From positions 1 through 34,924 of the IMG/VR virus record IMGVR_UViG_3300043443_000016: a DNA stretch of 34,924 nucleotides; one strand, written 5' to 3'. This stretch comes from a virus (Duplodnaviria; Caudoviricetes). Within the stretch, counting starts at the first letter, position 1. Each line of letters starts with the position of its first letter. The notes under the pieces were generated by a model. The model did no database searches, was not told where the DNA came from, and was given only the letters and a program-made list of their open reading frames with translations. The translations under genes and the position numbers were made by a program. This document shows positions 24,963 through 33,136 of the stretch, one piece after another.

Positions 24963-26573
24963 TTATTCTAGCAGACTTTGAATTTCTTTACGCTTTTCTT
25001 CGTCCAATAATCCTGTTGCACCTAACGGCAAAGCTGGCATAGCAAACATTTTGTCGCCAAACTTCTTAAACAATTCTGCTCGTTCTTTAGGTGTTTCATA
25101 GAAATAAATCTTATCAATTCCTTGGCTCTTTAGGTAATCAATAGATTGCTGTGGAACATCTTTAGGAACAATAGCACCTTCAAACTCGCTTACTTGGACT
25201 GCTCTTTGAGGCTTAATTTCAAAGTATTCAGTAGGCATTGCTTTGACTTTGTTCATAAATATCTGAACATCAGCCTTCAATTCTTGTGGAACATCTTTAT
25301 AAATCTTATCCAAATGATTTACATTTTTGATTTGACCAATCTCATACAAGGCATTTTGAGGGTCATATCTGTAACCATCTTGACCTTCTAGCTTACCAAG
25401 TCTATCTGACAAGTCATCAAAAGCATCATTGATTTTTTTCTTGATTGGCTCAAACTCTTTAGACGAAACAATGTTTTCTCGTGCTGCTTTTACTTGGTCA
25501 AAGTTTTTAAACTTAGGTGTAGCCACAGCACGAATGTTTCCAACTCCATAGTAGAAACCTTCTTCTCCAGCACCACCTTTCATTTCTCTTACAAGATTTT
25601 CAAGTGTCGCAGGAGCATAGCGTCTATTGCCAGAGTCTGTATATCCTCTGAAAATTCTTTCTTCTGGAACTACACCAACTTCAGCTAGTGTGTTATCCAT
25701 GTTTGCAGACCAGTTTTCAAATTGTGGCTTTAAGTCTCTTACTCGTTGATTTACTTCTTGAGTAAATTTCCAAGTATCTTTTGCATAGTCTTCACGATTA
25801 GGCAATAGTCCTTGTTCATCAAGAAACTTTGCTTTATAAATGTCAGATTCGCCTCTCCACTTCCAATCATTCTTTAGTCTATCTACTAAATAATCACCAG
25901 ATGGAACTTTTTTAGCAACATCAGCAAAATAATTGTCTATATTTTTAGTACTCTTTGAGTCAAATTTAAAGTCAATCTCAGGTGTTCTAGCTGTGTATGC
26001 GTCAAATCCATAGACAGGATTTTTAGCAGACGGAATTGCCATTGACTTATCGCCAATCAATGAGATATTGCCAAAACTACTCAATGGATTCTCTACATTT
26101 GAAACAGCAATAGAAGGTACTGGCATACCACCTACTTTTTCAACTCGTGCCAACTTTTCTGGCGAAAGATTGTGGTGGACAATCATCTCCTTGCCAGCTT
26201 CAACATTAGGCACAAATTGAGATGGAATTTTTTTGCCTAAAAGTCCACCAACATCCTCAATGCTTGCCCCTACTGGCATACCTTTGGTAGCCTTTGCTAA
26301 ACCAGCAGATGCAGGTAACAGGGTCATAGCAGCCTCAATCGCTTCTGGACGAGGCTTAGTAGTCATTCCACTACCAGTAGTCAATGGCTCACCATAAGCC
26401 ATTCTTTCCATTGTCTGCTGAACAGCAGGAACTCCCAAGAGATTCATCAACATCTCAACAGGAGGATTCTCATAACCAAATGGCTTTGCGCCAAATTGTT
26501 GGACTTTCTTTAGGCGGTCAGCAAGTAAACCCATAATTGGGTTTGACATTGGAGTAGCCCTTAGTTCAGCCAT
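24963..26573 (-). CDS. Polyvalent-protein-like domain protein, possible ADP-ribosyltransferase fold
   Basis: VHHNLS...GGMPVPSIAV...FGNISL...DAYTAR...YFEIKPQRAV core flanked by low-complexity GLL-containing termini. The function is inferred. Confidence 0.5.
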   Translation of the reverse strand: MAELRATPMSNPIMGLLADRLKKVQQFGAKPFGYENPPVEMLMNLLGVPAVQQTMERMAYGEPLTTGSGMTTKPRPEAIEAAMTLLPASAGLAKATKGMPVGASIEDVGGLLGKKIPSQFVPNVEAGKEMIVHHNLSPEKLARVEKVGGMPVPSIAVSNVENPLSSFGNISLIGDKSMAIPSAKNPVYGFDAYTARTPEIDFKFDSKSTKNIDNYFADVAKKVPSGDYLVDRLKNDWKWRGESDIYKAKFLDEQGLLPNREDYAKDTWKFTQEVNQRVRDLKPQFENWSANMDNTLAEVGVVPEERIFRGYTDSGNRRYAPATLENLVREMKGGAGEEGFYYGVGNIRAVATPKFKNFDQVKAARENIVSSKEFEPIKKKINDAFDDLSDRLGKLEGQDGYRYDPQNALYEIGQIKNVNHLDKIYKDVPQELKADVQIFMNKVKAMPTEYFEIKPQRAVQVSEFEGAIVPKDVPQQSIDYLKSQGIDKIYFYETPKERAELFKKFGDKMFAMPALPLGATGLLDEEKRKEIQSLLE

Positions 26574-31028: not shown

Positions 31029-31484
31029 TTACTCAAATAATTGCCATCTTTTTTTGCGTTTTATGTCGCTAACAGCAACTTGAGATATGCAAAATTTTTC
31101 AGCAATAATTCTTTGTTTTATTTTTTCATCCAACATTGCTCTTATTTGTCTAACTTGTTCAAGTGTTAATTTAGATGCTCTATTTTTTTCACCACCTAAA
31201 TTTATTCTTGGATGCCTACATTTTTTCCACATATCTAAAACATTTTCTTTTTGAGTTCCAAGAAATAAATGCTCTGGATTTATACATTGTGGAACATCGC
31301 ACTTATGGCAAACATTTAAGCCAATAGGAATTTCACCATTTGCTTCAATCCACGATGCTCTATGAGCGTTCATTTGAGTTCCTTTGTAAGCAACCCAACC
31401 ATAAGGATGACCAATTTTTTTTAATGCACCTTGATATAACCAACAACCATTGGCATCAATAACAATTCGTTTAAGAAATTTCAT
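31029..31484 (-). CDS. HNH homing endonuclease with C-terminal HTH
   Basis: GCWLYQG...AHRASW...VCHKCDVPQCINPEHLFLGTQKEN; AT-rich. Confidence 0.9.
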   Translation of the reverse strand: MKFLKRIVIDANGCWLYQGALKKIGHPYGWVAYKGTQMNAHRASWIEANGEIPIGLNVCHKCDVPQCINPEHLFLGTQKENVLDMWKKCRHPRINLGGEKNRASKLTLEQVRQIRAMLDEKIKQRIIAEKFCISQVAVSDIKRKKRWQLFE

Positions 31485-32254
31485 ACTTTCCTCACTACTT
31501 CTGCAATGTATTTGCGAACATGGTCTGGAATGGGTGCAGCCTTCTTTTCATCAGCTTTAATCTTTTCCAATGCAGGGTCAGGCTCATTCTTTGATGGAAC
31601 TGTGAGCCTCACAATGTCAGCAGGGTTTGGTTTAGGTGCGTAAGTATTTCTAACCCAATTACGCCAAGTTGCATCCCAATCCAACTTCACACCTTTTTGA
31701 CCAGATTGAGCAATCCAATGATCTTTAAAATTATCAAATGTTTTCTGTGGATTCAGTTCTGGCCTATGGTCAACACAAAACTTTTCCCATTCTTTTGACA
31801 AACAAGAATTTTGAGGGAGGCGTGAGCCTCTCTTGTTCTTATCTATTGGTTTATGGTTATTGGTTATTGGTTCTTGGTTAGGGTTATGTTTGGAAACCAC
31901 TTGGGTTTCTTGTGGGATAGCATCTGGGTTTGATTTGGGTCTACCACCTAGCTTTCCAACAGTACGATTACGCTCTGCTTTAGCTTGATAGTCAGCTATT
32001 GCTTTGTCGCATCGTTTGTGAAACCAACAATCATTCTCCATGTCAAACATAAAGAATTCTTCAAGTACTGTTTGCACTGCATTGATTTGATCTGTCATCC
32101 GTATCCGTCTGGAAACCTCTTGGGTTTTGTTTGGGATAGGTTTTTCGCTTGTGTAGTACAAGTCTAGCAATCGTCTAAATGCCAAATCCTCATAGATTGA
32201 CAAATGAGCCGTGTCGTGAATGTAGTCACTCACATGAAAAGAGTAGTAGTGCAT
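31481..32254 (-). CDS. Replication initiator (DUF1376/YdaU-like N-terminus, lambda O-like layout)
   Basis: YYSFHVSDY..DTAHLS..E..AFRRLLDLYY, GKLGGRP, and C-terminal KLDWDATWRNW. Confidence 0.85.
   Translation of the reverse strand: MHYYSFHVSDYIHDTAHLSIYEDLAFRRLLDLYYTSEKPIPNKTQEVSRRIRMTDQINAVQTVLEEFFMFDMENDCWFHKRCDKAIADYQAKAERNRTVGKLGGRPKSNPDAIPQETQVVSKHNPNQEPITNNHKPIDKNKRGSRLPQNSCLSKEWEKFCVDHRPELNPQKTFDNFKDHWIAQSGQKGVKLDWDATWRNWVRNTYAPKPNPADIVRLTVPSKNEPDPALEKIKADEKKAAPIPDHVRKYIAEVVRKV
31846..31893. repeat. Tandem 7-bp iteron-like repeats (TGGTTAT variants), putative origin
   Basis: ttggtttatggttattggttattggttcttggttagggttatgtttgg lies inside the initiator linker. Confidence 0.6.
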
Positions 32255-32272
32255 ATCTCTCGCCTTTTACAA

Positions 32273-32352
32273 CTCCCTAGAAAGAAACAGTCGGCAGGAG
32301 AGGGAGGAACTCTTTTCGGTACGCTCATGACTTCGTACCTAGCCGTTGTTTC
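32273..32352 (-). ncRNA. Structured 5' leader RNA of the initiator gene (three-way junction, possible pseudoknot)
   Basis: Helices GAAACA/UGUUUC, CGGC/GCCG and GGUACG/CGUACC; CUCCCU is complementary to a downstream AGGGAG. Confidence 0.65.
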
Positions 32353-32357
32353 AAAAC

Positions 32358-32392
32358 ATTGTAAACTTAAAAAAGCCTACTGTAAACTTAAA
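32358..32392 (-). promoter_or_regulatory. Sigma70 promoter of the initiator operon with overlapping 12-bp direct repeats
   Basis: TTTACA-N17-TACAAT; TTTAAGTTTACA occurs twice, 21 bp apart. Confidence 0.75.
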
Positions 32393-32756
32393 TTCTTTGA
32401 TTATTTGTAATCTGCTTTGTGAAATCAGGATTGCCCTTGTACAACCTCTTAGCTTGAGCGTTCATTACTCGGTACTCAGCAGGGGTAAAAATACCCTTGG
32501 CATTACGAATGTCAAACGGATTCAATAAGCAGCGCTTCTCTTCTGGCTTCTTAGCCTCAATCAAATCGTCTGACAAAGTGTATTTGGCAATCCAATGCTT
32601 CCCAACCTTGACCAACTCTGTTGTTAATTCACCCTTATGGCGAAGTTTCTTGGCTGTTGACAGGACAGTAGCCTGTGGCATACCAGTTAGGTTGGCCAGC
32701 TCATGTGAGGTTAGTGGGCCATTCTGGAGGGCTTTAATAATTCTTGCTTGTGTCAT
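32388..32756 (-). CDS. Winged-helix DNA-binding protein
   Basis: IIKALQNGPLTSHELANLTGMPQATVLSTAKKL; start MTQ by ATGA coupling to cro. Confidence 0.8.
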   Translation of the reverse strand: MTQARIIKALQNGPLTSHELANLTGMPQATVLSTAKKLRHKGELTTELVKVGKHWIAKYTLSDDLIEAKKPEEKRCLLNPFDIRNAKGIFTPAEYRVMNAQAKRLYKGNPDFTKQITNNQRI

Positions 32757-32905
32757 TTGAACCACTCTGGTCTGAGTTCTTTAAGTTGATAAATTCGTAA
32801 TAAAGGAATTGACTTCCATTGAAAAACAGCTCCTCTTGAAATGCCCAATATACGAGCAAGTTTGCTTTGAGAGCCAGCGAGTTTAATTGCAGTTTGTTTG
32901 TCCAT
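32753..32905 (-). CDS. cro: Cro-like HTH repressor, 50 aa (not in ORF track)
   Basis: MDKQTAIKLAGSQSKLARILGISRGAVFQWKSIPLLRIYQLKELRPEWFK*; first gene of the leftward arm at the divergence point. Confidence 0.85.
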   Translation of the reverse strand: MDKQTAIKLAGSQSKLARILGISRGAVFQWKSIPLLRIYQLKELRPEWFK

Positions 32906-32940
32906 CCTGTCAGTGTAGCAAAGTCAACAAAATACAACAC

Positions 32941-33036
32941 TAGGGAAAATACTTAGTAAATAATTGTTGATCTGTATGTTTAGATTGCTATACTTACATC
33001 AGCCCACAACAAATCGTAAGTGGGTACTTTTAAGGA
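32941..33036 (+). promoter_or_regulatory. Early promoter/operator/leader cassette, copy B
   Basis: TAGGGAAAATACTTAG, TTGATC-N16-TATACT with extended -10, TCAGCCCA...GGGTACTTTTAAGGA. Confidence 0.8.
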
Positions 33037-33043
33037 AAATCAA

Positions 33044-33136
33044 ATGAAAAGCAAGATTATTCAAACTCTAGTTGAGTGGACATTGGCAATCATCATCTTT
33101 GGTGGTTGGGGTGTTTTGTTAGCTTGGAGAGGCTAA
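33044..33136 (+). CDS. Single-TM early peptide, 30 aa (not in ORF track)
   Basis: SD AAGGA; MKSKIIQTLVEWTLAIIIFGGWGVLLAWRG*; TAATG coupling to the next gene. Confidence 0.7.
   Translation: MKSKIIQTLVEWTLAIIIFGGWGVLLAWRG

Follow-up and report, generated by a model that had tools for sequence, protein, structure and literature searches.

The putative initiator gene and its surroundings

The window analysed here, 34,924 bases long, is a complete virus record with direct terminal repeats at its ends. On its minus strand, at 31481–32254, lies a gene for a 257-residue protein with a DUF1376 domain (Pfam PF07120, E 1.8e-22). The protein matches PHROG families labelled primosomal protein (E 4e-34) and replication initiation protein (E 4e-10); searches with it of NCBIfam and of PDB sequences gave no match, and tblastn returned 157 records, every one less than 60% identical. 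The gene occupies the O position, after a cro-like gene and a gene for a helix-turn-helix (HTH) protein. Inside it, at 31846–31941 (minus strand), iteron-like repeats spaced 11–12 nt apart are followed by 7-nt repeats of the AACCAAT type, with eight AACC[AC] motifs in 110 nt against a strand average of 2.5 per kb; these repeats form a putative origin. On the basis of the PHROG labels, the gene order and the repeats, we take the DUF1376 protein to be a putative replication initiator. The stretch 31844–31882 is also common to otherwise unrelated contigs from four public runs.

Directly 3' of the putative initiator gene, and overlapping its stop codon, is a gene for an HNH endonuclease (31029–31484); the genes scanned in the window included no recognisable helicase or loader. 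On the other side, the HTH gene (125 residues, 32388–32765, minus strand) precedes the leader described below. The cro-like gene (minus strand) and an Erf/SSB operon (plus strand) diverge at 32753–33045, and the gap between them is crossed by an imperfect inverted repeat of 22 nt (32908–32929 and 32977–32998); in this gap, no cI-like open reading frame of at least 40 residues was found. At 24963–26573, upstream of the terminase genes, a 536-residue protein with a PBECR5 nuclease-like domain is encoded (Pfam E 5e-23).

Promoter and predicted transcription start

The promoter quoted in the first-pass annotation is present on the minus strand, with the -35-like hexamer TTTACA at 32386–32381, a spacer of 17 nt and the -10 hexamer TACAAT at 32363–32358, the latter also flagged, at 10/12, in a promoter scan. 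In the scan, six promoter-like sites were found, compared with 9.0 in shuffled sequences. Among 139 distinct instances of the leader, TAnnnT occurs 10–16 nt before the junction in 113, against 11–31 in four equally wide control windows, and in 69 it lies exactly 13 nt before. A -35 box with at least five of six matches was found in 13 of 77 homologues, and an extended TG -10 box in 39 of the 77. Transcription is predicted to start at 32352 or 32351. The HTH gene's stop codon lies directly against the promoter, and transcripts reading through from upstream may therefore include the leader as well; no terminator was flagged at the leader or at the end of the HTH gene, and no plus-strand promoter between 31109 and 32967.

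The -35 box is supplied by the upstream copy of an exact 12-nt direct repeat, TTTAAGTTTACA (minus strand, 32360–32371 and 32381–32392, with a spacing of 21 nt). The repeat recurs in nine of the 77 homologues and resembles a duplication of the -10 region; it might be an operator. In public RNA runs, a fraction of at most 0.10 of the words was present in eight runs, four of which were examined as assembled contigs, mostly of relatives. One assembled contig crosses the -10 box into upstream sequence, for which DNA and read-through are equally good explanations.

Fold of the leader

The 69-nt fold proposed earlier is present at 32352–32284 on the minus strand, and its minimum free energy structure (−18.6 kcal/mol) is a three-way junction. 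As a single sequence it folds near chance (z −1.85; among 200 shuffles, 12 are at least as stable), the opposite, plus strand folds better (−25.8 kcal/mol), and the fold with its tail (32352–32252) has a z of +0.70, giving no thermodynamic support. It is therefore comparison with relatives, through covariation, that leads us to accept the leader as real. The alignment contained 66 sequences, the window and 65 distinct leaders from the 139 instances, with a P2 arm of 22 nt and a P3 stem of 3 bp. Pairing was found in 93.2% of 1759 cells, compared with 38–53% in slid controls, and 20 of the 27 pairs show two-sided changes.

The 5' strand of P1 (32342–32352) consists of P1a, GAAAC (32352–32348), and P1b, CGGC (32345–32342); their partners, GUUUC (32288–32284) and GCCG (32295–32292), lie together with the junction bases CU at 32284–32297. 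P1a is paired in 93.3% of cells, with two-sided changes at four of its five pairs, and P1b in 99.6%, with such changes at two of four. These two helices of the originally proposed base are thus borne out, while the AG/CU pairs placed at the junction cannot be confirmed, since the Rfam model leaves U-A and C-U unpaired and the alignment shows no variation at them. The junction UA (32340–32341) is likewise invariant, as is the AAAA of the junction GAAAA (32313–32317; CGAAAAG in the Rfam consensus). Between these junctions rises the long P2 arm (32318–32339, 22 nt), with the stem GGUACG/CGUACC, which is 96.5% paired with two-sided changes at five of six pairs. G-U combinations far outnumber A-C combinations in the P2 stems (40 against 2), which fixes the strand of the RNA as the minus strand.

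For P3 (32298–32312), the small hairpin around UUCCUCC of the first-pass annotation corresponds to the minimum free energy register and is one step off; covariation sets a GAG/CUC stem around the 9-nt loop UUCCUCCCU (32309–32301). This stem is paired in 100% of cells, with its middle pair changed on both sides in 31 of the 66 sequences, and its register leaves the whole of CUCCCU free.

One loop and two target sites

As had been noted, CUCCCU (32306–32301) is complementary to AGGGAG at 32278–32273, 18 nt before the ATG at 32254. This partner, site 1, would form a pseudoknot of 6 bp with the P3 loop (−9.8 kcal/mol), and over the 66 leaders the pairing is found in 87.1% of cells, with two-sided changes at all six pairs. 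Covariation and position therefore uphold the proposal of a structured RNA leader with a loop-to-AGGGAG pseudoknot at a conserved place behind a promoter. A reading of AGGGAG as a Shine-Dalgarno sequence was rejected: 18 nt before a start codon is too far for one, and site 1 is often not Shine-Dalgarno-like in relatives. In the window, the anti-Shine-Dalgarno pairing value is −8.3 for site 1 against −4.7 for site 2.

This second match to the P3 loop, site 2, is the bulged AGG(C)GAG at 32259–32265 (minus strand, −7.3 kcal/mol), 4 nt before the ATG, where it overlaps a weak Shine-Dalgarno sequence, the likely ribosome-binding site. The earlier reading had seen the pseudoknot site and missed both site 2 and the self-complementary P2 loop discussed below. 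Whether loops fit the two regions specifically was assessed on the 128 of 139 instances that had an ATG frame and whose loop measured 6 nt or more, representing 62 distinct loops. At site 1, the mean duplex energy of a loop with its own site is −7.68, compared with −3.60 for permuted combinations; in the pre-ATG region, that of site 2, it is −6.63 compared with −3.94, and in neither case did any of 10000 permutations reach the observed value. The own site ranks in the top tenth for 45 of the 62 loops at site 1 and for 31 at site 2, meaning that site 2 is common, not universal. Taken alone, the window's site 2 is weakly specific, as 16% of the regions of other loci and 20% of shuffles pair equally well with its loop (L007 has the same loop and region). 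Within the window's sub-clade (38 pairs, 12 loops), the observed fit of site 2 to the loop was matched by 60 of 10000 label permutations, and the bulge is kept at one place, for instance in L487, where the loop TTCACCCTTT faces AAAG(C)GGTGAA.

The end of site 2 lies at a median of 5–7.5 nt from the ATG and that of site 1 at 17–23 nt, and the ATG follows the core at a median of 39–42 nt in all sets. As site 1 is both the stronger site and the nearer to the loop, a state in which the loop covers site 2 would need energy from outside.

A self-complementary loop on the P2 arm

The loop of P2 contains the palindromic hexamer UCAUGA (32325–32330, minus strand), a predicted homodimer, or kissing, site. 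In relatives, other hexamers stand at the same place (UAGCUA, UAAUUA, UGAUCN), so that self-complementarity is kept by covariation, as expected of a kissing loop. Palindromes of at least 4 nt occur in 29 of 46 distinct P2 loops (13.0 in shuffles, maximum 22) and in 4 of 62 P3 loops. A self-complementary centre lies 10 nt from the 3' end in 78 of 86 long arms, and 5 or 6 nt from it in 59 of 59 short arms (32.7 in shuffles, maximum 44), a two-position rule for the short arms that was picked after the data had been seen; these shuffle controls are inflated by related sequences. The palindrome is not perfect everywhere: its outer pair is broken in 19 of 66 long arms, the loops UUGCUC and UUGCUA retain just two self-pairs, and 20 of the 59 short arms have no 4-nt palindrome. 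In seven distinct short arms of 12 nt, a GACG tetraloop replaces it (L585, L610, L619, L325, L332, L378, L397 and L416 carry such arms).

A partner for the P2 loop in cis was considered and rejected, the fit to its own downstream 150 nt being 4.46 against 4.48 when permuted. More than one P2 hexamer is seen with 14 of 47 P3 loops, indicating that the two loops vary independently. By folding estimate, the dimer minus two monomers amounts to −8.0 kcal/mol, compared with −5.7 kcal/mol for shuffled loops, a modest gain.

Arm length was surveyed by scanning IMG/VR with one strict pattern over four bins of P2 length, followed by a structure filter. Arms of 10–14 nt occur in an estimated 2200 or so stretches, with 105 of 120 loci passing the filter, and arms of 21–24 nt in about 1700, with 116 of 119 passing. 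Between them, arms of 15–20 nt number 38 in all, of which eight pass (six distinct); arms of 25–41 nt number 82, and six distinct long arms pass (25, 25, 25, 33, 36 and 36 nt). The modes are 11 and 22 nt. A turn of an A-form helix is 11 bp. Within one hairpin, a step of 11 nt is half a turn, by which contacts in cis would be flipped; in a symmetric P2:P2 dimer it is a whole turn, and the two junctions would keep the same relative orientation. A P1 of the GAAAC type is common to 91 of 105 long arms, the other 14 and those of L337, L380 and L390, from bacterial genomes, being different; the long class is thus mostly one lineage, and a small number of events may lie behind the length gap. Three distinct arms of 33–36 nt (L299, L245 and L287) have no clear palindrome and were not counted; the 33- and 36-nt arms might represent a three-turn class.

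Relation to int-alpA and occurrence

At gathering thresholds, no Rfam family was found in the whole window. Below them, 32349–32275 matches positions 1–71 of the int-alpA model (RF02996) with 30.1 bits and an E-value of 1.7e-4 over 4227 families, where the gathering threshold is 35.8 bits. The score of the window copy is low because its P2 arm is long: P2 has about 13 nt and P3 5 bp in the int-alpA model, compared with 22 nt and 3 bp here. The two share the three-way junction, with the same junction bases (CUA, GAAAAG and CCUG), and a tail that ends in the complement of the loop; the model ends at site 1 and lacks site 2. None of 14 control genomes gave a match to int-alpA. L007, whose core is identical to that of the window, scores 32.8 bits, and in a scan of 20 of the 80 homologous loci, 14 initiator leaders match int-alpA at E ≤ 0.5. 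Short-armed leaders of the same DUF1376 gene exceed the int-alpA cut-off (L022, L057, L066 and L068). In L045, a second, short-armed int-alpA copy (2207–2274, 41.9 bits) lies downstream of the initiator, with a P2 loop unlike that of the first copy; no second copy was found in the window's genome. Judged by sequence comparison, the leader is real and conserved and is a long-armed variant of int-alpA, no formal member by score. By E-value, the Rfam search places it with this family, and the suggestion of a possibly undescribed motif is to be withdrawn.

The int-alpA motif, which Rfam types as 'Gene; sRNA', reportedly originates from Weinberg et al. 2017, the supplement of which may already contain the pseudoknot or the palindrome. 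The main text of PMC5737381 does not mention int-alpA. In the literature searched, no function for int-alpA was found and 'RF02996' did not occur; 'int-alpA-pri' in PMC13612085 denotes a gene module, int-alpA is only a table entry, not investigated, in PMC12370729, and PMC5795418, bioRxiv 2025.11.23.689978 and PMC10724649 (in its reference list only) have no bearing on its function.

The expectation that lambdoid initiator genes usually have no structured leader does not hold for this gene family: of 80 IMG/VR loci that carry a gene related to the DUF1376 gene, 77 have the motif within 130 nt of the start, and of the three exceptions two have a variant, recognised by eye (L062, L072), and one has the motif further upstream (L073). 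The motif is not specific to initiators either. By eye, from translations, it also precedes HNH nucleases, other replication proteins and unknown genes, long arms standing mostly before DUF1376-like and other putative replication proteins and short arms also before HNH-like nucleases and unknown genes. Filtered copies come from genomes labelled Planctomycetota, Acidobacteriota, Chloroflexota, Bacillota and several proteobacterial groups; a blastn search with the window's leader against 50,697 annotated phage records gave no match. With about 3900 IMG/VR stretches in two main arm classes, as counted with one strict pattern, the int-alpA-type family is common.

A proposed dimer-triggered switch and its alternatives

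From these sequence features, we propose that the leader is a cis-acting translational switch on the message of the putative initiator, triggered by dimerisation, a reading to which we give a probability of about 40%. Its parts differ in strength. That translation is controlled in cis through the two sites we consider likely; if it is, the odds that dimerisation is the trigger are slightly better than even. In a lone message, the P3 loop would sit on the nearer and stronger site 1, leaving 18 nt free for the ribosome, and translation would be on. When transcripts are abundant, their P2 loops would kiss and the junction would rearrange, upon which the P3 loop would shift to site 2 and cover the ribosome-binding site, turning translation off. 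Which site corresponds to which state, here site 1 to on and site 2 to off, is inferred and is the least certain step. The outcome would be negative feedback on genes that need a capped dose. Extended, tentatively, to the whole family, int-alpA-type leaders may be protein-free transcript counters, in which copies of an mRNA dock on each other and the loop moves from a decoy site to the ribosome-binding site, with arms of 11 or 22 nt holding the docked mRNAs in helical phase.

The same two-site switch might respond to another trigger, be it a host or phage protein, a ligand bound at the invariant UA/AAAAG/CU junction or read-through from upstream, with the palindrome secondary. Junction bases that stay invariant while helices vary are the pattern of riboswitches, expected of a binding pocket or a tertiary dock, and both sites covary with the P3 loop under this explanation too; the HTH gene that ends at the promoter with no flagged terminator would suit the read-through form of it. 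However, another trigger leaves unexplained why a palindrome of changing sequence keeps a fixed position and why arm lengths show a gap, and the downstream genes have, by eye, no common metabolic theme. We regard this alternative as somewhat unlikely. Unlikely, too, is a self-targeting RNA acting in trans in the manner of C4 or CI, by which a shortened RNA terminating in the U-rich linker, and hence without site 1, would dock on the message through the palindrome and place its P3 loop on the message's site 2; the message's own loop would meanwhile be silenced by site 1. Such an RNA would account jointly for a docking loop that is self-complementary and for the two targets of the other loop, it agrees with the sRNA type given in Rfam, and a U-rich linker does follow P1. 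Yet the linker has no flagged terminator, the longest U run being 3–5 in 100 of 105 long-arm leaders, and no C4-type Rfam match was obtained; moreover, the spacing from core to ATG is flat with arm length (median 39 for long and 40 for short arms), although the loop of a docked partner would lie about 11 bp further away.

It is also conceivable, if quite improbable, that nothing switches and that the leader is a constitutive one for add-on genes, a 5' stabiliser or a ribosome standby site, with site 2 a relic of a short duplication. The fold does begin at the predicted 5' end and site 2, weak in the window, is frequently imperfect; but site 2 follows unrelated loop sequences across 62 loops and, in the sub-clade of the window, has its bulge at one constant place, and a constitutive leader explains neither the palindrome nor the pattern of arm lengths. 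An element acting at the DNA level, either a bipartite operator with halves one or two turns apart or a hairpin of single-stranded DNA, is hardly credible. It would fit the better folding of the plus strand and the arm lengths, one turn of B-DNA being near 11 nt and two near 22, but not the 40 G-U against 2 A-C combinations, helices that covary instead of keeping their sequence, or the fixed place between the -10 box and the ATG.

If the dimer model is true, it would represent gene control by mRNA self-pairing, with neither a repressor nor a separate antisense gene, and could explain how initiator is limited in a phage that lacks a cI-like gene next to cro; it would also provide negative feedback in a compact part. 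The dose of initiators, homing nucleases and other genes would then be capped by one portable RNA, about 100 nt long, at thousands of loci of phages and mobile elements in different phyla. In the literature searched, which covers few subscription journals, no case of control by mRNA self-pairing was found in bacteria or phages. If the pseudoknot alone matters, the leader would be a new but ordinary variant within an orphan family.

Comparison with known systems

In phages P1 and P7 (C4) and in P4 (CI), an operon begins with a small folded RNA, a loop of which matches downstream sites in the same message. The leader in the window shares with these the folded RNA, its place at the operon head and the loop-to-downstream matches; unlike them, it has a different junction sequence and no C4-type match in Rfam.

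For contacts between RNA molecules, the closest parallels are retroviral. According to PMC5874298, hexamer palindromes (HIV-1 SL1) and GACG tetraloops (MuLV) are dimer contacts of retroviral RNA, the loop-loop contacts of MuLV are heterologous, SL-C with SL-D, and these loops pair genomes for packaging. The leader in the window resembles HIV-1 SL1 in its six-base palindrome at the tip of a hairpin, with unpaired purines on the 5' side (AAG-UCAUGA-G), and the GACG-tetraloop class among the int-alpA short arms resembles MuLV; both are analogies with no homology, and the dimer is a predicted one here. The RNA dimers described in the available part of PMC7357161 are those of retroviral RNA, oskar, bicoid, pRNA and riboswitches, with no phage mRNA leader among them.

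The analogy to the replication genes of IncB/IncI plasmids, drawn in the first-pass annotation, amounts to a loose resemblance. In ColIb-P9 repZ, as described in PMC4705826, a pseudoknot opens a masked GUG start after translation of a leader peptide, and a separate Inc antisense RNA blocks this. The window has neither a leader peptide nor a GUG start: the only start codon beside site 1 is a TTG, immediately followed by TAA, and the Rfam rep pseudoknot and RNAI families have no match in the window. What repZ and IncB rep have in common with the window is a replication gene with a pseudoknot from a loop to a downstream stretch close to its ribosome-binding site, and a candidate role in copy-number feedback; the window differs in having an ATG start, one loop with two targets and a second loop that is palindromic.
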